Source: a virus (Duplodnaviria; Heunggongvirae; Uroviricota; Caudoviricetes). From it: DNA of 37,741 bases. The notes below the pieces were generated by a model. That model searched no databases. It was not told the DNA's origin and worked only from the letters and a program-made list of their open reading frames with translations. The position numbers and the translations under genes were made by a program. Where the stretch lies: the IMG/VR virus record IMGVR_UViG_2541047834_000001; one strand, 5' to 3'. This document shows, piece after piece, positions 208 through 35,329 of the stretch. How positions within the stretch are numbered: position 1 is the stretch's first letter; each line of letters begins with the position of its first letter.

Positions 208-1458
208 GTGCTTACCGATACAAAATTAAAGAACCTCAAGCCACAGGACAAACTGTACAAAGTTTCCGATCGTGACGGGCTGTATGTAGCTGTGCTTACG
301 TCAGGTACGGTCTCGTTTCGCTATGACTACCGTATCAACGGTCGCCGCGAAACACTGGTAATCGGGCAGTATGGGCGTGACGGTATCAGCCTGGCAGAAG
401 CGCGAGAAGAACTGATTGCTGCAAAGAAGCTGCTTAAAGCAGGCCAGTCACCGGCTGCGGCTAAACGTGACGGTATCAAAAAGATTCGTGGTGCCGAGAC
501 GTTTGCGGTACATACCGACAGTTATATGAAACACGTCATCCTGGCTGACAGTACCCGCGCAATGAAACAGGCGGTGATCGACCGTGACATACTTCCGACT
601 CTTGGCAATAAAATGATGGCTGAAATTACCACATCGATGGTTCGTGATTTGTGTGACCGGATTGTCGAACGCGGTGGCCGGGCAACAGCAGTGCAGGCCA
701 GGGAGATCATCAGTAGCGTATACCGTCACGCCAATGACCGTGGTCATGGTTTGTTTAATCCTGCGGCTGACATTAAACCTTCGTCTATCGCCATATTTAA
801 ACCACGAGAGCGAACACTGACACCAGAAGAAATTGGCCTGTTCTTCCGCACGCTGGATGCCATTGGTGCTATGGGCACTATGAAAATGGCTTTAAAACTG
901 GTGCTTATCACTATGGTTCGTAAGGGCGAATTCACCAATGCAACGTGGGATGAAATAGATTTTAAAAAATGGACATGGACAATTCCTCCAGACCGCATGA
1001 AGGGAAGCCGGGCGCACGTTATTTACCTGCCTAAACAGGCACAGGATATATTGGTCGGGTTGCAGATGTGCGCTGGTGGAAGTGAATATCTGGTTCCTGG
1101 TCGTTACAATTTCCGGAAGCCATTATCTAATGCCGCGCTAAACTCTCTGATCGACAGAACGGTGAAAATAATAAATGAAGATGGTGAGCATATTCAGGAC
1201 TTCACTGTACATGATATGCGCCGTACAGCCAGTACGTTGTTGCATGAGGCTGGTTATCCTTCAGACTGGATTGAAAAGGCTCTGGCACATGAGCAGAAAG
1301 GTGTGCGCGCCGTATATAACAAAGCGGAATACGCCAGACAGCGCGCCTACATGTTGCAGCAGTGGGCCGATATGATTGATTCATGGATTGACGGGGAGCA
1401 TACGGATCTGATTCCGTTCTCCCCGTCGAAGTTTGAGAAGTGGATGGCGGGGGAATAA
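208..1458 (+). CDS. int: Tyrosine site-specific integrase (P4-type phage integrase family)
   Basis: 416-aa ORF next to attL; N-terminal arm-binding-like region (YVAV..FRYDYRINGRRE) and C-terminal catalytic region with HDMRRT (HxxR) and RAVYNKAEY (Tyr nucleophile region). Confidence 0.9.
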   Translation: MLTDTKLKNLKPQDKLYKVSDRDGLYVAVLTSGTVSFRYDYRINGRRETLVIGQYGRDGISLAEAREELIAAKKLLKAGQSPAAAKRDGIKKIRGAETFAVHTDSYMKHVILADSTRAMKQAVIDRDILPTLGNKMMAEITTSMVRDLCDRIVERGGRATAVQAREIISSVYRHANDRGHGLFNPAADIKPSSIAIFKPRERTLTPEEIGLFFRTLDAIGAMGTMKMALKLVLITMVRKGEFTNATWDEIDFKKWTWTIPPDRMKGSRAHVIYLPKQAQDILVGLQMCAGGSEYLVPGRYNFRKPLSNAALNSLIDRTVKIINEDGEHIQDFTVHDMRRTASTLLHEAGYPSDWIEKALAHEQKGVRAVYNKAEYARQRAYMLQQWADMIDSWIDGEHTDLIPFSPSKFEKWMAGE

Positions 1459-1461
1459 CGT

Positions 1462-1656
1462 TTAATAGTTCTGCTGATTTTCTTCCATCTCTGCTTCTGC
1501 TGCCAGTGATTCAATTTTGTTTTCGAATATTGCTGACAGTGTTGCAAATTCAGCATCAGTGACAGCGGGAATTGGAACAAACCTGATCCCGCTGTGTGCA
1601 AGCATGTTTGCAGTTTCAAGGCATTTTCTTAAATCTGCTGGTGATGCCCTGTTCAT
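1462..1656 (-). CDS. Hypothetical small protein (64 aa), last gene of leftward early operon
   Basis: ATG at 1656 overlaps the TGA stop of the upstream methyltransferase gene (ATGA coupling); convergent with int. Confidence 0.45.
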   Translation of the reverse strand: MNRASPADLRKCLETANMLAHSGIRFVPIPAVTDAEFATLSAIFENKIESLAAEAEMEENQQNY

Positions 1657-2303
1657 GCAGCACGCTCCCGTCCCTGGTTGTCTGTTGGTGACAGCGGAGC
1701 ATTGCTGAATGCATTTGTTAATCCGCCAATATCCAACGCGTATCCAGGGTGTAGTTGCACTGCCGGGTCTTCGCACTGATTACCCCAAACATCGAAGCCA
1801 TGAGACGTCTGGCGGGCGAACAGTTCAATGCGAGAAACATCGCCTAATAATTGCACAAGTTTTTCACGAACGATATCTGGCTTTCTTGAATGCTCAAGCC
1901 GCGGTGCGGTAAATGACTGAACGATCCCTGCATTAATGCGCGTAGGTAGTTTTCCCTTTACCGCAAACAGGCAATCTTCACTATTGGCGCGAGTCATGTG
2001 TCCCATACCCATAACAAGTTTATCTGGTTGTCGACTACCACATTTTATCCACGTGAAGCCCTTCATCGTCATCAGACGGAATCCCCAGGCTTCAACAACT
2101 TTTAGTGCTTCGAGTGGTTGTGTTGGCACCCACCACATGGCCAACAGACAGTTTTCATCGGCCAAATCCCACACAGGAAGGCGGCAGATATCCAGCACAC
2201 TCATAACCGGATATTTAAAACCGGCACCGCGATTACCATCTGCGGCTTTGTCCCGGTATACCCAGGGTGGATCTGCATAGATTAGTGTGTATTTCTTAGT
2301 CAT
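1653..2303 (-). CDS. DNA N6-adenine methyltransferase (DPPW motif; MT-A70 / phage Dam-like)
   Basis: N-terminus MTKKYTLIYADPPWVY carries the DPPW catalytic motif; ATG at 2303 preceded by GGGGTGG RBS; ORF extends to a GTG at 2315. Confidence 0.75.
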   Translation of the reverse strand: MTKKYTLIYADPPWVYRDKAADGNRGAGFKYPVMSVLDICRLPVWDLADENCLLAMWWVPTQPLEALKVVEAWGFRLMTMKGFTWIKCGSRQPDKLVMGMGHMTRANSEDCLFAVKGKLPTRINAGIVQSFTAPRLEHSRKPDIVREKLVQLLGDVSRIELFARQTSHGFDVWGNQCEDPAVQLHPGYALDIGGLTNAFSNAPLSPTDNQGRERAA

Positions 2304-2595
2304 AAACCACCCCACAACATCCTATGCCGCTATAGTCGCCACGGCGAAGGCCGTTACCTTTTGTGATACATTGGTCCCTGCGAACCGCGATCCTTGCACG
2401 CTCAACATCACCAGAAGCAACATCCATACACTGAAGCCAAAGGTAGGCGGCAATTCGGAATTGCCCTTTTTTCTCTCTTTCAATCGCGCGTTTTTCGATC
2501 TCTATCGCCGCAGGAGTAACGGCGACAATCTTTGACGGACTGCGCATTGAAACCTTATTCATGTGATATTTTTCAAGTCGGCTTAACTTTCTCAC
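2296..2595 (-). CDS. Hypothetical protein (99 aa)
   Basis: ORF in leftward operon; GTG start with GAGGG upstream; 8-nt overlap with methyltransferase start. Confidence 0.4.
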   Translation of the reverse strand: MRKLSRLEKYHMNKVSMRSPSKIVAVTPAAIEIEKRAIEREKKGQFRIAAYLWLQCMDVASGDVERARIAVRRDQCITKGNGLRRGDYSGIGCCGVVYD

Positions 2596-2704
2596 TTAAT
2601 CCAACCCTCTCTGAAAATTAATGCCAGCAGATAAAGCCATGCTGAAACAGAGGCCAGGAATAAGTACCATCCTGACCATTTGCTCCAGTGTCTTAGCAGC
2701 ACAC

Positions 2705-2953
2705 TCATGCAGCGTTGCTCACAGGACGATATACACGTTGCTGAACAGGAGGTTTTTTACCCTGGAACTCTGCCGGGCTTGCTGCCTGACGTTCATCAAG
2801 CCAACGCTCAACTTCGTCACGGTTCCATGCGCAGCGTTTGTCGGTGATATACCAGCGTTTAGGAAATTCCCCTGCGCGCTCCATACGGTCGATAGTGCTC
2901 CATGACAGTGGCACCACCGCCAGGAGTTCCTTCTTACCTAATGCACCTTTCAT
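2705..2953 (-). CDS. AlpA-family phage regulatory protein / excisionase (MerR-like HTH)
   Basis: 82 aa; LLAVVPLSWSTIDRMERAGEFPKRWYITDKRCAWNRDEVERWLDER matches the AlpA/Xis pattern. Confidence 0.8.
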   Translation of the reverse strand: MKGALGKKELLAVVPLSWSTIDRMERAGEFPKRWYITDKRCAWNRDEVERWLDERQAASPAEFQGKKPPVQQRVYRPVSNAA

Positions 2954-3002: not shown

Positions 3003-3884
3003 TTACATAGATGTTTCGTTTAATTCTTCCCGACGAACGCTGTAAACGTCGGTGGCTTTTGCCAGCAGTTCGTCATCATCTGAAAGTTTTTGTGCAATGT
3101 ATTTGTAAGCCTTATCCAGTTCGGAGACAGTGCTGTAATTCATCGCTGCGCTGGTAAAGGCCATCAGCATTTCTTCTGGATCACGGCTATCCGCTTTACG
3201 AGTTTGCTCATCAGGCTTTTTCACTGGTTTAGCGTTGATCAGACTGTTCATTCCCGCAGCAGTAGTTGTTTGCGGAGTAATGTCTCGCTCAACGCGCGGT
3301 GCCGTTTCCTGTAATTCGTCAGGGGTATAAACACCGAGAAGCACATCAGGAGCGTGCAGGCGAGCCCATCGTTTCGTGCAAAGATAGGCAAGCTGCTGGC
3401 GCGGATCCTGTTCCCACAATGGAGAGTTACGCACTCCGGCTTGCGCCATACTGATGGTAAGCTCACGGGGTTCTGCTTCTCCTTTAAGAACTGCTGACAC
3501 AGTTACCGTCAGATTCGGTGATTTATCTGTTTTGCCGTTAACATTCGACCAGTCACCGCTCCAGCGATAATTCAGGCGTGTCGCTAGCAGGCTGGAAGAG
3601 GATACGACCGCGTTTACCAACTGTGCTTCGTAGCCTAACTTTCCGTTTACCACATGCGTTTTCTGCGCCACGGCGAAAGGGTTCATTCCCCACTGTGCCG
3701 CCTGCATGGTCACCGCCAGACAATCGGCAGGTTTGCCTTCAAGATGTTCCGGTACAGTCGCTTTGCTTTGTGACATCAACTCCGCGAAACGCACCAGTTG
3801 ATTCATGCCCTCCGGGCTGAAGATTGCCGCAGCAGTACCTACAGTTGCGCCTGGTTGTGATGTGATTGCGATATCATTGCTCAT
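3003..3884 (-). CDS. Single-strand annealing recombinase, lambda Bet (Red-beta)-like
   Basis: 293 aa; AAQWGMNPF...NGKLGYEAQLV and ERDITP resemble lambda Bet; start overlaps upstream exonuclease stop (ATGA). Confidence 0.7.
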   Translation of the reverse strand: MSNDIAITSQPGATVGTAAAIFSPEGMNQLVRFAELMSQSKATVPEHLEGKPADCLAVTMQAAQWGMNPFAVAQKTHVVNGKLGYEAQLVNAVVSSSSLLATRLNYRWSGDWSNVNGKTDKSPNLTVTVSAVLKGEAEPRELTISMAQAGVRNSPLWEQDPRQQLAYLCTKRWARLHAPDVLLGVYTPDELQETAPRVERDITPQTTTAAGMNSLINAKPVKKPDEQTRKADSRDPEEMLMAFTSAAMNYSTVSELDKAYKYIAQKLSDDDELLAKATDVYSVRREELNETSM

Positions 3885-4702
3885 ACGTACATATCCTGTT
3901 TACGTGCCCAGTCAGGGCGTTTAATAATTTCCACTCCGCCCCACTCATCGTTGATGCGGCATTCGTGATAGGTATTCAGATCCCGGCGGAACAGATCGTG
4001 ACCGGCATCGACATCCGGCGCATCCAGCTCGAACACGCGTACCGGATACCGACCACAATCAATGCTTTCGCTCACGGCAAGAAAGAAAAAACCATGCGGC
4101 TGACCAGTAACCCTCATTGCGCCTTCGCGGTACATTGCGTCCTGCACGTGGTAGCGGAATTCCTCGATGTGGCGTGCAAAACGGTCCATATCTGCAACCT
4201 TTTTCACGTCGACGATCACGTTGTGCTCGTTCAGCCATTTGTCTGGACGAATGCGGCACAACTCACCAGTCTCTTCATCGTTCCAGTACATTGATGCTTC
4301 GCAGTAACCAGGTGCTTCCAGCATCCAGCGTGCCGCCGGGTGAGCCATTGCGCTATCACGCATCAGCTCCAGTTTCCGCCACTGCTCGGCATCAAGTACC
4401 GTAATCCCCATATCCGCTACATCACGAAGAAATGCCTCTTCGTCAGCTTTACCTTGTTTTGTCCGACGATCGAATTTCGGTGAAACGATGAAGCGTTTGT
4501 CAAACTCTCCAGGTTCCAGAAGCAGACAGTGCAGAGCAGTACCCATGTCCAGTGCAGACTTCTTCTCTTCGTCTTCCGGAGCAGCCTTCACCCATTTCAG
4601 AAGGGCAGGGTTCTTAGCCACCATATCTAGCTGCGACTTACTCACGCCGTCACCGGCGTGGTAGTCCTCGTTGCTGATATCGAAATAAATTCCCGGATTC
4701 AT
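3881..4702 (-). CDS. Putative recombination exonuclease (partner of the Bet-like annealase)
   Basis: 273-aa ORF translationally coupled immediately upstream of the bet-like gene; exo-annealase pairing is the standard arrangement; nuclease fold not verified. Confidence 0.6.
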   Translation of the reverse strand: MNPGIYFDISNEDYHAGDGVSKSQLDMVAKNPALLKWVKAAPEDEEKKSALDMGTALHCLLLEPGEFDKRFIVSPKFDRRTKQGKADEEAFLRDVADMGITVLDAEQWRKLELMRDSAMAHPAARWMLEAPGYCEASMYWNDEETGELCRIRPDKWLNEHNVIVDVKKVADMDRFARHIEEFRYHVQDAMYREGAMRVTGQPHGFFFLAVSESIDCGRYPVRVFELDAPDVDAGHDLFRRDLNTYHECRINDEWGGVEIIKRPDWARKQDMYV

Positions 4703-5172: not shown

Positions 5173-5187
5173 TTACCGTTGAGGTAA
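5173..5187. promoter_or_regulatory. Operator-like palindrome TTACC-GTTGA-GGTAA (leftward early promoter region)
   Basis: Perfect half-sites; adjacent extra TTACC at 5160. Confidence 0.5.
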
Positions 5188-5234
5188 TAATTATGCGTAT
5201 TTGGTTTGGTGTCAATAGATATGAGTTAAAAAAA

Positions 5235-5261: not shown

Positions 5262-5286
5262 TAAAAAAGCCGCCAGAAGGCGGCTT
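5262..5286 (-). terminator. Rho-independent terminator downstream of the repressor gene
   Basis: GCCGCC-TTCT-GGCGGC hairpin followed by TTTTTT on the minus strand. Confidence 0.6.
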
Positions 5287-8763: not shown

Positions 8764-9435
8764 ATGGAAAGTAATATCAAAGGGTTAGTTTCCGCCGGGC
8801 ATGAGATGGCTTCGGAACTGAAAGCAGAATGTGGTGCCGTTGATATGCGTAGTGTGGCAAAGCTGATCAGCGATTTGGCAACGCAACTGGAAGTGCAACT
8901 GGTGCGTGCTAATGCGCTGGCGGCGGAGAATGCGAGACTGAAGGCCGGGGCTATGTATTTCTCATATGGCTCTGAATTTAGTTTCGAGTGTCACAAAACT
9001 GCTGAGGAGGCTATCGCTGCTGCTGAGGCTGCAATTGACGACTATAGAGGCGATGCTTGCGATGGATGGAGCGAAGAGGTCGAAAGCATTTGCTGGGGGG
9101 TAATTATTCAGCAGGCAACCAAGGTCGGTGAACGCAAGAAGAGGAAATGCGACAGAGTATCACCATGGATTGAAAGAGTTTGTGATTATGAGCTTCGACC
9201 TAATGTCGAAACCCCAGCCACCGATGCTTTCCTGTCTGAAGTGCGGGCGCAGGGGGTGGATGCTGCCATAGAAGCTGCAAAAAATCTGGTGGCCCAAGAA
9301 TATGAGTATAAGGATTTCAAAGCGGCGCAGAGTGATTGCTGTATGCACCCTGGTTCAGACCTGGTAGGGAAGGTTGAAATGACTGAGTGGTTAGTTGACT
9401 TTGCTGCCCAGCTTCGCAAAGGAGGCAACCAGTGA
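8764..9435 (+). CDS. Hypothetical protein (223 aa)
   Basis: ORF with GAGGG RBS; Cys-containing, Ala/Glu-rich. Confidence 0.55.
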   Translation: MESNIKGLVSAGHEMASELKAECGAVDMRSVAKLISDLATQLEVQLVRANALAAENARLKAGAMYFSYGSEFSFECHKTAEEAIAAAEAAIDDYRGDACDGWSEEVESICWGVIIQQATKVGERKKRKCDRVSPWIERVCDYELRPNVETPATDAFLSEVRAQGVDAAIEAAKNLVAQEYEYKDFKAAQSDCCMHPGSDLVGKVEMTEWLVDFAAQLRKGGNQ

Positions 9436-9698
9436 GTGAGTCAAAATGCCAAATTAATGGCAACAAGATAGAACCGTGCGCGGCGTTGACGCAATCCCTG
9501 GAGCATGACGCTGAATACACGACGCGGAAAGGTCTGCTGAAATACAAAATCTATAACCATGAATTAATTCATTCACAAGACCTGATCATGCTGCGGTCTG
9601 GTGAATTTTCTAAATCACCGATTCGAGTTTCATTTTGCCCGTTCTGTGGTGAAAGTCTGAAAACGTGGGAAGCGGAGGCAACCAGTGAGCAAGATTAA
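9432..9698 (+). CDS. Hypothetical protein (88 aa)
   Basis: GTG start inside conserved GGAGGCAACCAGTGAG cassette; overlaps upstream stop. Confidence 0.45.
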   Translation: MSESKCQINGNKIEPCAALTQSLEHDAEYTTRKGLLKYKIYNHELIHSQDLIMLRSGEFSKSPIRVSFCPFCGESLKTWEAEATSEQD

Positions 9699-10494
9699 CT
9701 ATCAGGCTCTGCGACTGGCGGCAGAGCAGGCAATGCATGACGACTGGGGATTTGATGCGGACCTTTTCCATGAGCTGGTAACACCATCGATTGTGCTGGC
9801 ACTACTGGATGAACGGGAAAGAAACCAGCAATACATCAAATCCCGCGACCAGGAGAACGAGGATATTGCGCTAACGGTAGGGAAGCTGCGCGTTGAACTG
9901 GAAGGCAAAGACAGCAAGATAGCCAATCTTACCGCCGAACGCGATGCTCTTCGTGAAGGTGAGATGGGCGACGCTAGGCATAGCAACACACGGGCCGCAG
10001 CTGATATCTACTTCCAACTGGTCGAGGAGTGCGAAATTCCTGCTGGCGGTTCTCTGGTCGAGTACGTTGACGATATGCGCGAGAAGCTGGAAGCCGCAGA
10101 GAATAACCTCATTGATAGTGAATGCCATGTTGCTGAACTGGAAGAAGCGCTACGCGATAAGCAGGCGTTACTTGAAGCATCAGAAAAGCGCATAGCAGAA
10201 CTGGAAGCACGGGAAATAAAACCAGCCAAAGGTGAAGTTCTTGTCGTTGTTTCTGGTTTTACTGGTTGCGGAAAAAGCGCCATCGCCGGGGAAATAGAAA
10301 TCGCGATGAAGGCTATTGGTGTACCGGTTCAGTGGACTAATGGCGATGCGGAAAAGCGCATGACAGGAGCTGACTGGCTGACAGCGATTGAGATGTACAA
10401 ACCAACAGTGCGCATCGTGGAAGTTAATGTGCCGCGCGCCGCAGGCATTCGCATCAAAGGAGACACAGGAGAACAAAACGATGAAAAACCGTAA
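9685..10494 (+). CDS. Coiled-coil protein, Ead/Ea22-like (tentative)
   Basis: 269 aa; GTG start inside a second GGAGGCAACCAGTGAG cassette; central heptad-rich region. Confidence 0.55.
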   Translation: MSKINYQALRLAAEQAMHDDWGFDADLFHELVTPSIVLALLDERERNQQYIKSRDQENEDIALTVGKLRVELEGKDSKIANLTAERDALREGEMGDARHSNTRAAADIYFQLVEECEIPAGGSLVEYVDDMREKLEAAENNLIDSECHVAELEEALRDKQALLEASEKRIAELEAREIKPAKGEVLVVVSGFTGCGKSAIAGEIEIAMKAIGVPVQWTNGDAEKRMTGADWLTAIEMYKPTVRIVEVNVPRAAGIRIKGDTGEQNDEKP

Positions 10495-10657
10495 AGCAAA
10501 ATTACTTCTTTTATCGCGTTCGACGGGGTACGAGAAGCTACCAATCAGCAATCACAAACGGGCGGTGATCGGCATGTATGGTAGGGTGGTATTCGCATTT
10601 AACTATAAACCCACCGCGTCGCGGAACAGACGAGAGAAGGGGTACGCAGTGCGATGA
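10481..10657 (+). CDS. Small basic protein (58 aa), paralog 1 (MKNRKAK...)
   Basis: ATG with AGGAG-like RBS; ATGA-coupled to next ORF. Confidence 0.35.
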   Translation: MKNRKAKLLLLSRSTGYEKLPISNHKRAVIGMYGRVVFAFNYKPTASRNRREKGYAVR

Positions 10658-10845
10658 AAAATCGTAAGGCAAAGATGCTGATAGCAAAGCCCGGGCAGCG
10701 TATCCGTATCTCAAATCGGCTTGTTATTTACTATAGATATCTGGGTTTTAGGGGGTGTTCCTCTATTCGTTTTTACGGTGTCTGGCGAAACAGAAGCGCA
10801 GCACAAAACCGCTGGAAAAACCACTTTCGCACTAAAGGAGAGTGA
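10654..10845 (+). CDS. Small basic aromatic-rich protein (63 aa), paralog 2 (MKNRKAK...)
   Basis: Shares N-terminal heptapeptide and first ~20 nt with the preceding ORF; ATGA overlap. Confidence 0.35.
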   Translation: MKNRKAKMLIAKPGQRIRISNRLVIYYRYLGFRGCSSIRFYGVWRNRSAAQNRWKNHFRTKGE

Positions 10846-10846
10846 T

Positions 10847-10996
10847 ATGGCTAAGTACATCGTGACTATCGAAGGATTTAATGATTGCAAGGTTGTTGAG
10901 TTTGAAGCAGACACGCCAGAGGATGCCGAAGAAATAGGCAGAGACATATTCTATGAAGAATGCAACTACGGCGTATCACCTGCTACAGAGGACTAA
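10847..10996 (+). CDS. Hypothetical small acidic protein (49 aa)
   Basis: MAKYIVTIEGFNDCKVVEF...; AAAGGAGAG RBS. Confidence 0.5.
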   Translation: MAKYIVTIEGFNDCKVVEFEADTPEDAEEIGRDIFYEECNYGVSPATED

Positions 10997-10999
10997 CAC

Positions 11000-11938
11000 A
11001 TGACCACTATTACCAAAGAGCGACTGCTGACAATCAAGCAGTGGCGCGAAACATACGGACCTGGTAGCAACGTTGTACTGCCAGCAGAAGAAGCGGAAGA
11101 GCTGGCACGGATTGCTCTGGCATCGCTGGAAGCAGAACCGGTGGCATGGACTGATGAAGAGGAACTGCGCGATGTCAGGAAGTATGGTTTCGGTGAGATA
11201 TTTCAGTGTCCGCCAGATAAATATGCGGACCCGCGTCGTGTAATCTCGCTGTATCGCGAGCTGCCAGCACCGGTAGTGCCAGATGATTGGCAACTCGTAC
11301 CTAAGAAAATAACACTGGAAATGGAATGTGCTCTATCAAAAGCTGATAGCTATGAAATTGGTTGGCTATGGGCATTGGCAGCCGCACCTAAATACGAAGT
11401 ACAGAACGCTAAACGCGTGCAAAACGCGCTTAACGCCTGCCGCGCCGCCATGCTTCAGTCCGGAAACTTTCGGGAAAACAAGAATTCGTCAACCAATAAT
11501 TTTCGGGAAATCGCGGAAACGTCAACCAACTATCCGGCAATTCCTAGTGAGGTGTTGTCCGCAATCCTGAAGGTTGCCAGGATTCGTGCCGATTTCGATG
11601 ATTTTGACGGTGACAGGCGAGGTATCGGTGATTGTCTGGATGAGGCTGAGCAAGAGCTTATCGTTACCATTAACAAATATGCCAGTCAGTTGGCAGCAGA
11701 ACCGATAGCGACTAATGACGTTCGAGAGCAGCAGACAGCCGTTCCGCCAGTTCCGGAAATACAGGATGATGTCGCGCAAGCAATTGAAAATCTCAAGCAG
11801 AAGTTAGTGGAATGCAATCGCTATAACTACTGCGCAGATGCAGTTAAAGGCGTAGAGGATGCCTGCCACGCTGCCATGCTTCAGGGTAGGGAACGCCTTG
11901 TTCTGGATGCCGCTACCAGAACCGCCGCAGGAGGTTAA
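11000..11938 (+). CDS. Hypothetical protein (312 aa) with internal repeats
   Basis: Long ORF; repeated peptide N/DAC(R/H)AAMLQ and tandem ~33-bp DNA repeat at 11468-11532. Confidence 0.6.
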   Translation: MTTITKERLLTIKQWRETYGPGSNVVLPAEEAEELARIALASLEAEPVAWTDEEELRDVRKYGFGEIFQCPPDKYADPRRVISLYRELPAPVVPDDWQLVPKKITLEMECALSKADSYEIGWLWALAAAPKYEVQNAKRVQNALNACRAAMLQSGNFRENKNSSTNNFREIAETSTNYPAIPSEVLSAILKVARIRADFDDFDGDRRGIGDCLDEAEQELIVTINKYASQLAAEPIATNDVREQQTAVPPVPEIQDDVAQAIENLKQKLVECNRYNYCADAVKGVEDACHAAMLQGRERLVLDAATRTAAGG

Positions 11939-11941
11939 TTG

Positions 11942-12226
11942 ATGGACTCCTTCGCGAAATATACGATTATTGACTGGATAGCATTCCTTCAGGTTTTGCT
12001 CATCTGGTTTTATATGGCTTACAGGAGTGGACAGTGGATTGTCAGTGTAGCCTGTAGCAAGGGATGGCGTTGGTGGAACCGAAAGAATAAAAAAGCACTG
12101 GCCTTGGATTCGTTTTACGAAGCGTTCAATCTCAACAGCCTTCAGCCTGGTTCTGTCATTGTAGTCACCACTCAAAGCGGCGTGACGATACAAATTCACA
12201 AGCCAAAGGAGGAAGGTCGTGGCTAA
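11942..12226 (+). CDS. Hypothetical small protein, likely membrane-associated
   Basis: ATG at 11942 with GCAGGAGG RBS; hydrophobic N-terminal segment. Confidence 0.5.
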   Translation: MDSFAKYTIIDWIAFLQVLLIWFYMAYRSGQWIVSVACSKGWRWWNRKNKKALALDSFYEAFNLNSLQPGSVIVVTTQSGVTIQIHKPKEEGRG

Positions 12227-15681: not shown

Positions 15682-15758
15682 TGGCGTGGCATGCAGGATT
15701 CGAACCTGCGACCAACCGCTTAGAAGGCGGTTGCTCTGTCCAACTGAGCTAATGCCAC
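15682..15758 (-). tRNA. tRNA-Arg (anticodon UCU, reads AGA)
   Basis: 77-nt cloverleaf on minus strand: acceptor GTGGCAT/ATGCCAC, D-stem GCTC/GAGC, anticodon stem ACCGC/GCGGT with loop CTTCTAA, T-arm GCAGG-TTCGAAT-CCTGC, discriminator G, encoded CCA. Confidence 0.9.
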
Positions 15759-33139: not shown

Positions 33140-35329
33140 ATGACGGTCTCAACCGAAGTTGACCACAACGAATACACCGGTAACGGCGTTACGACATCAT
33201 TTCCGTATACCTTCCGTATTTTCAAAAAAACCGACCTGGTTGTTCAGGTGTCTGACCTGAACGGGAACGTAACAGAATTGGTTCTGGATACCGGTTATAA
33301 GGTAACTGGAGCGGGCACTTATAGTGGCGGTGAAGTGGTTCTCCCGTCGCCGCTTGCTGCTGGATGGCGAATTACGATAGAGCGTGTGCTTGATGTGGTG
33401 CAGGAGACTGATCTTCGCAATCAGGGAAAATTTTTCCCCGAAGTTCATGAGGATGCATTTGACTACCTGACGATGCTGATCCAGCGATGTTTCGGGTGGT
33501 TCAGACGTGCATTGATGAAACCATCTTTGCTTGCAAAATATTACGATGCAAAGCAAAACAGAATTTCTAACCTTGCAGATCCATCACTTGAGCAGGACGC
33601 TGTAAATAATCGCTCAATGCGTAATTATGTCGATGCTGCAATCGCCGGGGTTGTTGGTGGTTTTGGTTGGTTTATACCGTCAGGAAGCGGGGCAAGACAA
33701 CGAACATTTCAAAGCAAAATGAGGGATATAATTTCTCCTTGTGATTACGAAGATAATATTTTTATGATTAAGGAGTTGATATCCAAAGGCAAAAATGCCG
33801 CTGTTTTTAACTCATATTATACTTTTGTTATTACTGTTGGCGAATGGGGTGATTACCCTACACTCAAAGATGCAATCATTGCAGCCCAGTCAATGAGACC
33901 TATGTGGGATGGTGGTAATGCTTTCTGCGAAATAAGAATTAAGACCGGGCATATTATCAACTATCAAATTGAATTCAGTTCAGGTGTTGATTTGTCTTGG
34001 ATTAAAATAACATCAGAAGACTCAGTGGTTTTCTCTGACACTCGTTTGTTTACTAAAATCGTTAGAACGTATTACGAATACAAGTATTTATTTTACATTT
34101 GCGATGCAGCAAAAAGTCCTGTATTTGCTATTCAGATCGAAGAAAATAGAGATGATAGCGATGTTTGTGCATTTATTGTAACTCAAAAAGCTGAACTTAA
34201 TTTCTATCCGTATTCAGGTGCTCGAAAGTTCTACGTTGGAATTCATGGTAGTTTTGGTGCAAAAATTAGTGCATATCATACCGGATGTGCTCCTGATGAG
34301 GAAAGTGTTGCTGCATATATGCCAGAAGGGTATTACGTATGTGATTTTTCTTATAGCAGATACTCTTCCCTGCAACTGGTAAATAATGTCAAGGCATCAA
34401 TGCCTGTAAGCAAGTTTGAACGGTGCACAGAGAGTACGGTTGCGTCAGTTAATTGTATTTATAATGTTAAAGCAGATTTTCAGGGGTCAAGTGCAAGCTA
34501 TTGTTATATAGGATGGAATGTAAGAGATGGTTCAAATGTTAATATACGCGACCATAAAACTATACATTGCTCATATCGTGGATTAACCTGCATTCATACA
34601 GCATATGTTGATGCAAGACGACATGACGTTGAAGAAAGTGATGCAGAAACAAGTGGTAAAGTCCTTGAACCAAATATTGAAAAAGGTTTTTATGGATGTG
34701 CACTTGGTGTGCGTATTGATGGTGCGGGTTGCGTTGATGTTGCTGGTAATGATATGCGCAATTGTGGAACAGCCGTTAATGCAGACACTGGTGCTGTTAT
34801 TTCAGGAAAGGCTGTAGATATCTCAGGGGCTGAGCTGGGATTTGATTGCCATGCAGGAGCATCTGTTAATTTTCCAAGGCTATGGGGTACAGATATAAAA
34901 AAATTAATGCACCTCCAAGATGGTGTAAGGTTTAACTCTAATATTTGTCATGTATTTGGTGCAAATCCCACAAAAGATATTAGATGGATTGATGTAGAGA
35001 GATCTGAAGCTTCTTTTATGAATGCAACGCTGGATGCAGATTCAGGATTTATTGCCGACTGTGGTAGTAGGATAACCATTGAAGGAAGTAAAGTTAAAAA
35101 CCAAACAATAAGAAGTTTTTTTGGATCATATGTGGCTATAAATAATACTGTTGCTGACAGAACTTATTCAGATATAGCCGATGTTCCGCAGTTGACTATT
35201 AGTGGAGGATCTTTTATTTCTGCTACAGGATATTCTAATTCTGACTCCAGCCCTCTGAGGTTGAGCACAACACGAAATACACTTGGCGTTGGAGGAGCTA
35301 TATTTTCAACCAATGGGGAAGTTTCATGA
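33140..35329 (+). CDS. Tail fibre / tailspike protein (conserved N-terminal adaptor, variable AT-rich distal domain)
   Basis: 729 aa; N-terminus (NEYTGNGVTTSFPYTF...NRISNLADPSLEQDAVNNRSMRNY) resembles podovirus tail-fibre anchors; distal portion about 35% GC. Confidence 0.75.
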   Translation: MTVSTEVDHNEYTGNGVTTSFPYTFRIFKKTDLVVQVSDLNGNVTELVLDTGYKVTGAGTYSGGEVVLPSPLAAGWRITIERVLDVVQETDLRNQGKFFPEVHEDAFDYLTMLIQRCFGWFRRALMKPSLLAKYYDAKQNRISNLADPSLEQDAVNNRSMRNYVDAAIAGVVGGFGWFIPSGSGARQRTFQSKMRDIISPCDYEDNIFMIKELISKGKNAAVFNSYYTFVITVGEWGDYPTLKDAIIAAQSMRPMWDGGNAFCEIRIKTGHIINYQIEFSSGVDLSWIKITSEDSVVFSDTRLFTKIVRTYYEYKYLFYICDAAKSPVFAIQIEENRDDSDVCAFIVTQKAELNFYPYSGARKFYVGIHGSFGAKISAYHTGCAPDEESVAAYMPEGYYVCDFSYSRYSSLQLVNNVKASMPVSKFERCTESTVASVNCIYNVKADFQGSSASYCYIGWNVRDGSNVNIRDHKTIHCSYRGLTCIHTAYVDARRHDVEESDAETSGKVLEPNIEKGFYGCALGVRIDGAGCVDVAGNDMRNCGTAVNADTGAVISGKAVDISGAELGFDCHAGASVNFPRLWGTDIKKLMHLQDGVRFNSNICHVFGANPTKDIRWIDVERSEASFMNATLDADSGFIADCGSRITIEGSKVKNQTIRSFFGSYVAINNTVADRTYSDIADVPQLTISGGSFISATGYSNSDSSPLRLSTTRNTLGVGGAIFSTNGEVS

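Follow-up and report, generated by a model that had tools for sequence, protein, structure and literature searches.

The window analyzed here, a stretch of 37,741 nucleotides of viral DNA, is a whole phiV10-like (epsilon15-like, Uetakevirus) temperate prophage of E. coli, and it carries an intact orphan methyltransferase (MTase) gene of the MT-A70 family, whose product probably methylates double-stranded DNA at GATC in a Dam-like manner. The MTase is 98% identical to gp33 of phiV10 (216 aa in both), from which it differs by four amino-acid substitutions, and the prophage is otherwise collinear with phiV10.

The gene is already known: its annotation dates back to the phiV10 genome (PhiV10p33, YP_512288.1; "DNA methyltransferase / putative adenine methylase"), and PGAP has given it a name in hundreds of E. 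coli genomes. Of 5426 complete E. coli genomes, 569 contain the int–DUF1382–MTase–PerC block, in which PGAP calls the gene "MT-A70 family methyltransferase". In phiV10 the gene has the same neighbors (int, DUF1382, PerC, a small transmembrane protein, AlpA and RecT) and the same overlaps with them. The literature searched contained no experimental characterization of either the window MTase or phiV10 gp33. As an annotated gene in a family with characterized GATC-specific members, it carries little weight as a discovery. Its remaining value is that of a natural comparison for a question raised in 2023, namely whether prophage MT-A70 enzymes act on DNA (GATC) or, with a partner, on 16S rRNA, controlling prophage induction. 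The phiV10 version combines the catalytic core of the Stx-phage enzyme with another tail and lacks PNB-2, the partner of that enzyme, and it may be informative on the features that set the substrate.

A complete MT-A70 domain

The gene and its catalytic motif are located as follows.

1653..2303, minus strand: MTase ORF with an ATG start, 216 aa; orphan N6-adenine methyltransferase of the MT-A70 family (class beta), counterpart of phiV10 gp33
2262..2273, minus strand: motif IV DPPW, residues 11-14, read directly in the translation as 'LIYADPPWVY'

A sequence-only reading of this DNA had described the product as a DPPW N6-adenine methyltransferase, and our data agree, assigning it to the MT-A70 type. 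Residues 5-176 align with positions 1-172 of the 172 positions of the Pfam MT-A70 profile (PF05063), with a score of 80 bits (E 2.6e-22) against a curated cut-off of 23.9 bits. The MTase also matched PHROG 359, "DNA methyltransferase" (E 3e-120), and the PADLOC model MTase_II, a REBASE-derived model of Type II MTases (E 2.7e-77), while no NCBIfam model matched either the MTase or its small neighbors. Across 56 homologs, P12 and W14 of the motif never vary, and D11 and P13 each occur in 90% or more. The placement of the (D/N)PP(W/Y) motif IV near the N-terminus is the motif order of the beta class, and the protein is a minimal single domain of 216 aa without a separate target-recognition domain.

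The AF2 model of the MTase (pLDDT 79.9, pTM 0.80) has the METTL3/MTA1-like fold. The top Foldseek matches in the PDB were MTA1 of Tetrahymena (7yi8_B) and METTL3 (5il1_A), with E values of about 1e-12 and TM scores of 0.6-0.74, and a sequence search of the PDB likewise retrieved MTA1 (4e-13) and METTL3. The domain search suggested in that reading thus returned a complete MT-A70 domain and no different fold. Judging from sequence and model, the window gene is an intact SAM-dependent N6-adenine methyltransferase of class beta (MT-A70), with catalysis as its predicted activity.

Gene coupling and the leftward operon

The genes and sites surrounding the MTase are listed below.

208..1458, plus strand: P4-type tyrosine integrase, from the ORF list; phiV10 gp31
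1462..1656, minus strand: DUF1382 family gene, 64 aa, downstream of the MTase (Pfam PF07131, E 1.8e-30); phiV10 gp32
1653..1670, minus strand: MTase/DUF1382 gene junction, with a Shine-Dalgarno GGGAG within the 'GRER' codons and an ATGA stop/start overlap
2296..2562, minus strand: PerC-family small regulator, upstream of the MTase, 88 aa from its ATG (Pfam PF06069, E 1.6e-6); phiV10 gp34
2705..2953, minus strand: AlpA/excisionase-like gene (Pfam Phage_AlpA, E 3.1e-5; PHROG 66 "excisionase and transcriptional regulator", E 2e-16)
5187..5215, minus strand: candidate sigma-70 promoter of the leftward operon, TTGACA-17-AATTAT, from a consensus scan only (10/12 positions)

The MTase is the penultimate gene of a compact leftward operon that comprises the genes for an exonuclease, RecT, AlpA/Xis, a small membrane protein, the PerC-family protein, the MTase and the DUF1382 protein. 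The AlpA/excisionase-like gene stands at the head of the int-proximal part of this operon. The integrase gene is convergent with the operon, the two stop codons lying 3 nt apart. The MTase gene had been placed between the excisionase region and int and described as coupled to small flanking ORFs, and both statements hold. At its 3' end, the MTase stop codon and the start codon of the DUF1382 gene form the overlap ATGA (1653-1656), the junction reading …CAGGGACGGGAGCGTGCTGCATGA on the minus strand; at its 5' end, the MTase gene overlaps the end of the PerC-family gene by 8 nt (ATGACTAA, 2296-2303). A 4-nt overlap with the next ORF is likewise seen in many homologs, which terminate in '…RAA*' or '…EAA*'. 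Translation of the MTase is coupled to both of its neighbors. The PerC-family gene matched PHROG 868, "transcriptional activator" (E 3.6e-61), and its reading frame extends upstream to a GTG at 2595.

The candidate promoter at 5187..5215 may drive the leftward operon. It sits just downstream of the terminator of the repressor gene (5286..5267), for which the phiV10 annotation has a terminator at the equivalent position, and we found no terminator-like site on the minus strand between the candidate promoter and position 1462. The timing of MTase expression would presumably follow that of the operon; in phiPA8, the MTase gene has a promoter of its own.

Orphan status

No restriction endonuclease gene adjoins the MTase, whose neighbors are the PerC, DUF1382, AlpA and integrase genes, and neither a homology comparison of the rest of the prophage with the annotated phiV10 genome nor Pfam and PHROG scans of the window-specific segments revealed one, several of the ORFs there being hypothetical. 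A restriction enzyme hidden in window-specific DNA was considered and rejected, there being no Pfam or PHROG match. Membership in a known defense system was rejected as well, since PADLOC matched generic Type II MTase models only; the cognate endonuclease gene that lies next to the MTase gene in a Type II restriction-modification system is missing here, only the MTase component being detected. Because no restriction enzyme gene was found, the label "orphan" is justified, in agreement with the earlier claim that no endonuclease gene is adjacent.

The C-terminal tail

The C-terminal 40 or so residues had been singled out as unusual, and a frameshift or a fusion had been suggested as the cause. 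The first part of this claim stands, as residues 178-216 fall outside the Pfam model. They consist of two segments.

1731..1772, minus strand: residues 178-191, a C-terminal beta-hairpin (…PAVQLHPGYAL), with AF2 strands at 182-185 and 188-191 and pLDDT of about 75-83
1656..1730, minus strand: residues 192-216, a lineage-specific extension, with a helix at 192-199 followed by the disordered 'SNAPLSPTDNQGRERAA' (AF2)

Although the hairpin lies beyond the Pfam model, its motif 'xxVxLxPGxA' is found in most homolog tails. The extension is common to phiV10, Enterobacter phage Tyrion and prophages of Salmonella (P0007) and Enterobacter hormaechei (P0070), and it is missing from SPC32H, from the Stx-phage enzymes and from most other homologs. 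When nearly identical variants from E. coli are compared, the tail has a 4.5-fold higher density of variable sites than the core (Fisher p=0.0012).

The explanation by frameshift or by fusion with the downstream ORF, which would make the product damaged or chimeric, draws on the position of the last 40 or so residues beyond the Pfam model and on the DUF1382 frame, which is open for 42 codons upstream of the DUF1382 ATG and overlaps the tail. However, some 40 open codons are expected by chance at a rate of about 0.15, the alternative open frame is not conserved among homologs, and the tail contains no slippery heptamer or homopolymer. Moreover, the phiV10 protein agrees with that of the window in both length and tail, and this tail recurs in the Salmonella and Enterobacter prophages. 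The comparison with Tyrion also bears on this point: the last 48 nt of the gene are 94% identical to those of the window, the rest of the gene being only about 75% identical, and the last 16 codons show three synonymous and no amino-acid changes, a pattern that resembles purifying selection. AF2 folds residues 178-199 (pLDDT 75-83), with values below 50 for residues 202-216. A true frameshift variant, the homolog P0096, reads '…EDGSATTPRIRVGYWRINK…', unlike the window. We therefore rejected a frameshift or fusion origin, which seems exceedingly improbable. By alignment and model, the C-terminal 39 residues are no artifact, the first 14 being the beta-hairpin of the fold and the other 25 a largely disordered, lineage-specific appendage. 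The final 'GRERAA*' codons also serve the next gene, as they contain its ribosome-binding site and the ATGA overlap. With a tail that is normal for its lineage rather than frameshifted, the finding becomes an ordinary one.

A probable GATC methylase

Dam-like methylation of GATC is the activity suggested by the relatives of the MTase. The methylase of the O104:H4 Stx phage P13374 is 83% identical to it over residues 1-187, and enzymes of this M.EcoGV type are reported to methylate GATC in vivo (PMC10810198; GATC listing in PMC6602927). The MT-A70 protein p32 of Serratia phage BZS1 was found to be GATC-specific by MboI/DpnI digestion and is 75% identical to the homolog of phage HK639 (PMC7556043), to which the window MTase is 45% identical. 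M.EfaBMDam of Tn1549 is also GATC-specific (PMC7556043). Characterized GATC enzymes thus bracket the window MTase, its putative specificity being derived from relatives at 45-83% identity.

Some observations on these relatives qualify this picture. The purified Stx-phage enzyme was nearly inactive on dam- DNA in vitro, and in the view of the authors of that work, the GATC methylation reported for M.EcoGV may be an artifact of over-expression (PMC10810198). Two variable loops (residues 86-98 and 125-131) also occur as two alleles among homologs, suggesting that specificity might differ within the family. GATC is mildly under-represented in the prophage, with an observed/expected ratio of 0.72, a value that says nothing for or against the proposed target.

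By analogy with these relatives, DNA would be the substrate, GATC the target, and the biological role may be outlined as follows. Once the leftward operon is on, the MTase would make phage DNA, and incidentally host DNA, more heavily or completely methylated at GATC. Such methylation could shield the progeny from m6A-sensitive GATC restriction in new hosts, and it might also tune prophage or host gene expression and induction. Protection from host restriction, the role usually ascribed to phage orphan methyltransferases, would be a generic expectation only; where the E. coli host is Dam+, a further GATC methylase is for the most part redundant, and this applies to the GATC activity of the relatives.

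Alternatively, the MTase may be a relaxed or non-specific adenine DNA methyltransferase, like M.EcoGII, Hia5 or the Serratia prophage OS31 enzyme, giving broad anti-restriction protection. Non-specific adenine MTases do exist in phages and prophages (PMC3299994, PMC7556043), the purified Stx-phage ortholog was weakly and non-specifically active on both DNA and RNA (PMC10810198), and a minimal protein of 216 aa without a separate target-recognition domain is consistent with such behavior. Nevertheless, M.EcoGII, Hia5 and the OS31 enzyme are all absent from the sequence matches of the window MTase, the literature searched gave no non-specific member of the MT-A70 subgroup, and the MT-A70-type relatives M.EcoGV type, BZS1 p32 and M.EfaBMDam are reported as GATC-specific (PMC7556043, PMC6602927). 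Relaxed specificity has, in our opinion, a slim chance of being correct.

A possible partner-dependent RNA methyltransferase

The closest studied ortholog, that of the Stx phage, points to a different activity, with reported control of prophage induction and methylation of 16S rRNA together with a partner (PMC10810198). It binds PNB-2, encoded by the co-transcribed upstream gene, at a 1:1 ratio and prefers 16S rRNA and 30S subunits, and the partner was proposed to bind to the last 27 residues of the enzyme (PMC10810198). The window MTase could likewise be the catalytic subunit of an RNA (16S rRNA) methyltransferase similar to M.EcoPA8orf6770P, needing a small co-expressed targeting partner, possibly the PerC-family or the DUF1382 protein docked through the C-terminal tail, and modulating translation and prophage induction instead of restriction. 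In line with this, the two enzymes share a core that is 83-84% identical, the window MTase is coupled to small proteins on both sides, and a DUF1382 gene is also located 3' of the Stx-phage MTase gene. Phage MT-A70 genes are repeatedly found just 3' of genes for small proteins with a wHTH and/or PerC domain, with wHTH-PerC fusions in this position in Buttiauxella. Eukaryotic MT-A70 enzymes are generally heteromers, and those in the METTL3-METTL14 and MTA1 complexes were the top structural matches of our model.

Of the sequence features of the Stx-phage holoenzyme (Gong et al. 2023), however, only the catalytic ortholog is present in the window. A tblastn search revealed no PNB-2 homolog anywhere in the window, PNB-2 has no similarity to the PerC protein (nor does the latter resemble ORF08 of P13374), and the Stx-type C-terminal segment of about 27 residues is replaced by an unrelated tail; a PNB-2 homolog in the window and kinship between PNB-2 and PerC were therefore both rejected. 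We also compared tails and neighbors at 43 loci (the window, four phages and 38 species-representative genomes), clustering the immediate upstream and downstream ORFs. The neighbors were very diverse, including PerC, wHTH, DndB, NinB-like, RusA-like (the last two assigned by eye), DUF1382 and other proteins, and tail type was independent of either neighbor, which led us to reject co-variation of the tail with a neighboring partner gene. Tyrion shares the window tail, yet has other genes on both sides, PerC neighbors occur with five different tails, and the upstream gene varies even among Stx phages with an identical enzyme. In addition, the rRNA result comes from SAM-consumption assays in which the modified base was not mapped (PMC10810198). 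Taken together, a 16S rRNA methyltransferase of the Stx-phage kind appears unlikely. A related version, in which the tail (helix 192-199 plus the disordered end) recruits the co-translated PerC-family or DUF1382 protein and redirects the enzyme to a non-GATC or RNA target such as rRNA, strikes us as improbable; if true, about 10% of E. coli genomes would have nucleic-acid methylation linked to the PerC-type family of virulence regulators.

Rare in-frame PerC-MTase fusions were observed in two homologs (P0003 and P0001), which may be assembly errors.

Comparison with known systems

The Stx2a-phage MTases (M.EcoPA8orf6770P of phiPA8; M.EcoGV type of P13374) show, over residues 1-187, the 83-84% identity mentioned above, and they share with the window MTase the variable loops 'KCGxRQxDKLVMGMG' and 'NAGI(V/I)QSF'. 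Both genes are orphans close to int, and each precedes a DUF1382 gene, the DUF1382 homologs being 49-53% identical. The C-terminal 25-30 or so residues are, in contrast, unrelated, diverging after 'WGNQC..P', and the wHTH protein PNB-2 is encoded upstream in the Stx phages, where the window has the PerC-family gene. The backbones also differ, lambdoid Sepvirinae for the Stx phages and Uetakevirus for the window.

More distant are BZS1 p32, the HK639 MTase and M.EfaBMDam, which belong to the same Pfam family and are also small single-domain orphans, often beside an integrase gene, but with only about 45% identity and with other tails and neighbors. METTL3-METTL14 (m6A in mRNA) and the ciliate MTA1 complex (6mA in DNA) have the fold and the DPPW motif in common with the window MTase; nonetheless, identity is about 20%, and they are obligate heteromers with extra domains and subunits, as opposed to a stand-alone domain of 216 aa.

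Dam of E. coli (class alpha, PF02086) and the phage Dam of PF05869 type (for instance M.EcoVT2Dam) are orphans too and probably share the GATC target, although they are unrelated to the window MTase in sequence class and motif order (PMC7556043). If the GATC prediction is true, the window MTase and these enzymes would represent a case of convergent specificity.

A common phiV10-like prophage gene

Around the methyltransferase gene, the window shares 98% DNA identity with Escherichia phage phiV10. Comparison of the whole window showed a complete phiV10-like (epsilon15-like, Uetakevirus) prophage, permuted at its attachment site, in which replacements relative to phiV10 are limited to a few segments. 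The phiV10 counterpart, gp33 ('DNA methyltransferase / putative adenine methylase'), is equally long and lies among the same neighbors (gp31 int, gp32 DUF1382, gp34 PerC, gp35 small membrane protein and gp36 AlpA). Complete E. coli genomes yielded 546 records that match the initial 3 kb of the window with at least 95% identity, and 569 of 5426 such genomes match it at any identity; PGAP names the product in those genomes 'MT-A70 family methyltransferase'. It is a common prophage gene, already known and annotated, and its locus indicates no new mechanism.

The ORF has 216 codons. A mechanical ORF list extends it upstream by four codons, to a GTG at 2315, but we place the start at the ATG at 2303 because homologues all open with 'M-x-x-KYTLIYADPPW'. 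The sequence-only reading had located and described the gene correctly, with DPPW at residues 11-14 and overlapping flanking genes:

208..1458, P4-type integrase gene, convergent with the methyltransferase operon
1653-1656, ATGA start/stop overlap with the downstream DUF1382 gene (64 aa)
1653..2303 (-), methyltransferase gene
2296..2562 (-), upstream gene for a PerC-family small regulator, terminating 8 nt within the methyltransferase gene (ATGACTAA)
2705..2953, AlpA/excisionase-like gene

Consensus scans predicted a terminator after the repressor gene (5286..5267), a good σ70-like site downstream of it (5215..5187), and no terminator on the methyltransferase strand between that site and 1462. 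Given this candidate promoter and the lack of a terminator after it, these pattern scans make the methyltransferase plausibly the penultimate gene of a leftward operon.

None of the neighbors is a nuclease. The annotated phiV10 genome, collinear with the rest of the prophage, contains no restriction enzyme, and in the window-specific segments Pfam and PHROGs identified only Ead/Ea22, DUF4752, tail-fibre proteins and proteins of unassigned function. The gene is thus an orphan, as had been proposed. Among 43 loci (the window, four phages and 38 species-representative genomes), the MT-A70 gene is in nearly all cases coupled by overlap to the genes on both sides. These neighbors are highly diverse and include PerC-family, small winged-helix, DndB and DUF1382 genes, as well as NinB- and RusA-type genes judged by eye. 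Such an arrangement is typical of a mobile accessory gene residing in phage early regions.

A PerC-domain protein lies directly upstream in six of the 43 loci, as in the window, L023, L024, L025 and L031. In Buttiauxella, the upstream PerC domain is fused to an N-terminal winged-helix domain. Rare in-frame PerC-methyltransferase fusions from read assemblies (P0003 and P0001) are perhaps homopolymer errors.

Fold and C-terminal tail

The entire Pfam MT-A70 profile (PF05063) aligned to residues 5-176 (E = 2.6e-22), PHROG 359 ('DNA methyltransferase') matched residues 1-204, and the REBASE-derived Type II methyltransferase model of PADLOC gave E = 2.7e-77. Among solved structures, MTA1, the DNA 6mA methyltransferase of Tetrahymena, is nearest by sequence (E = 4e-13), together with human METTL3. 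The catalytic domains of both were also the best Foldseek matches (E ~1e-12, TM 0.6-0.74) to an AlphaFold2 model built with 56 homologues as input (mean pLDDT 79.9, pTM 0.80). Domain and structure searches thus gave the expected MT-A70 fold and no different one, confirming the adenine methyltransferase family.

The last 40 residues had been thought unusual and possibly the result of a frameshift or fusion. The Pfam model reaches only as far as 'FDVWGNQC' (residue ~177), and nearly all homologues (120 from databases and 38 genomic loci) run ~15-25 residues further, with the pattern 'xxVxLxPGxA…'. Residues 182-191 form a β-hairpin in the AlphaFold model (pLDDT around 80), and this stretch is part of the domain. 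The remaining 25 residues comprise a short helix (192-199, 'LDIGGLTN') and the disordered 'SNAPLSPTDNQGRERAA' (pLDDT below 50). This extension is common to phiV10, Enterobacter phage Tyrion, Salmonella cluster P0007 and Enterobacter hormaechei P0070, and is partly present in a Cedecea protein (P0011). A frameshifted relative, P0096, reads '…EDGSATTPRIRVGYWRINK…', the alternative frame, and is unlike the window enzyme. No slippery heptamer or homopolymer was found in the tail, and the 42 codons over which the DUF1382 frame is open are not a conserved feature of other phages. A frameshift or fusion origin is therefore rejected.

The tail is loosely constrained overall, and near-identical E. coli variants vary at 9 of its 39 residues against 9 of 177 in the core (Fisher p=0.0012). 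The Tyrion enzyme is 81% identical in protein and ~75% in DNA, and the last 16 codons differ from it by three synonymous changes and no amino-acid change. The extreme C-terminus is odd yet conserved because the terminal codons (…GGA CGG GAG CGT GCT GCA TGA) hold the Shine-Dalgarno sequence GGGAG and the ATGA overlap that serve the gene downstream. Many homologues likewise terminate in '…RAA*' or '…EAA*' and overlap the following ORF by 4 nt.

The final 48 nt of the gene (1653..1700 (-)) are 94% identical to Tyrion, against ~75% elsewhere in the gene, despite different downstream genes, and this end resembles a conserved module junction in which the Shine-Dalgarno sequence and the ATGA overlap both lie. 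Two unlike genes upstream of the Stx-phage methyltransferase have only their final ~21 residues in common ('…LYIDEFENAL').

Predicted activity

Dam-like methylation of GATC in DNA is the best prediction for the enzyme, and a fairly probable one, because close and distant relatives both have that specificity. Over residues 1-187 the methylase of P13374, an O104:H4 Stx phage, is 83% identical to it, and other Stx2a-phage copies match that methylase at 99.5% identity. The P13374 methylase is of the M.EcoGV type; such enzymes are listed as GATC-specific (PMC6602927), and their over-production is reported to yield GATC methylation in vivo (Fang et al. 2012, as cited in PMC10810198). The HK639 homologue is 45% identical to the window enzyme; Serratia phage BZS1 p32, an MT-A70 enzyme 75% identical to that homologue, rendered the DNA of a dam- host MboI-resistant and DpnI-sensitive (PMC7556043). 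Tn1549 M.EfaBMDam, from the same subgroup, is cited in the latter paper as GATC-specific. The function first proposed from the sequence was generic.

A partner-dependent or RNA-directed role seems unlikely for the window enzyme, even though it has its catalytic core in common with a Stx-phage orthologue for which such a role is described. That orthologue reportedly raises spontaneous prophage induction and virulence, is almost inactive alone in vitro, and forms a 1:1 complex with the upstream-gene product PNB-2, which its C-terminal 27 residues may bind; the complex prefers 16S rRNA and 30S subunits (Gong, Chakraborty and Koudelka, PMC10810198). Faint hints in the same direction come from the recurrence of small winged-helix and/or PerC-domain proteins directly 5' of phage MT-A70 genes, their fusion in Buttiauxella, the DUF1382 gene following both the Stx and phiV10 methyltransferase genes, and the rare, perhaps erroneous, PerC-methyltransferase fusions. 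However, we found no PNB-2 homologue in the window, where the upstream PerC-family gene is unrelated to PNB-2 and the tail is unrelated to the Stx-phage tail. Across the 43 loci, tail type did not track with either neighbor: Tyrion has the window-type tail but different genes on both sides, PerC neighbors accompany five different tails, and Stx phages with identical enzymes differ in their upstream genes. Such a role thus lacks specific support at this locus.

With the same core as the Stx-phage enzyme, a different tail and no PNB-2, the window enzyme offers a natural comparison for deciding whether prophage MT-A70 enzymes target GATC in DNA or rRNA, which is its sole practical use.

Two surface loops, residues 86-98 and 125-131 (~2010..2048 and ~1911..1931, -), occur as two alleles among homologues: 'KCGSRQPDKLVM' with 'NAGIVQSF' in the window and Stx phages, and 'HKTNKHKGNSAI' with 'DASICQHV' in most other homologues, Tyrion and SPC32H among them. 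Allele and tail type assort independently, implying intragenic recombination, and the loops are candidate substrate-contact loops.

Other features of the prophage

Two segments have no phiV10 counterpart. The nin-like region at 8945..12218 encodes Ead/Ea22, DUF4752 and a 312-aa ORF of unassigned function (11000..11938). The segment 32165..35753 holds a tail-fibre gene (33140..35329) differing from that of phiV10, and its O-antigen-modification region is replaced; these differences suggest another host serotype specificity than that of phiV10.

ARAGORN identified a tRNA-Arg (anticodon TCT) at 15682..15758 (-), collinear with phiV10 ~2851-2927. It maps antisense within the CDS of hypothetical protein PhiV10p04 (2672..2923 +), so that this annotation is perhaps spurious.

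RecT and a 273-aa ORF, a presumed exonuclease in the place of the Tyrion 'putative exodeoxyribonuclease', are two distinct ATGA-coupled genes (3003..3884 (-) and 3881..4702 (-)), whereas phiV10 RefSeq annotates one 'RecE-RecT fusion' of 1761 nt. Within the window, 3428-3607 has no alignment to phiV10.

Among palindromic tetranucleotides (observed/expected over the whole window, maximal-order Markov), CTAG stands at 0.24, GGCC at 0.55, AGCT at 0.67 and GATC at 0.72. CTAG avoidance is usual in enterobacteria, and the depletion of GGCC and AGCT possibly reflects restriction avoidance.
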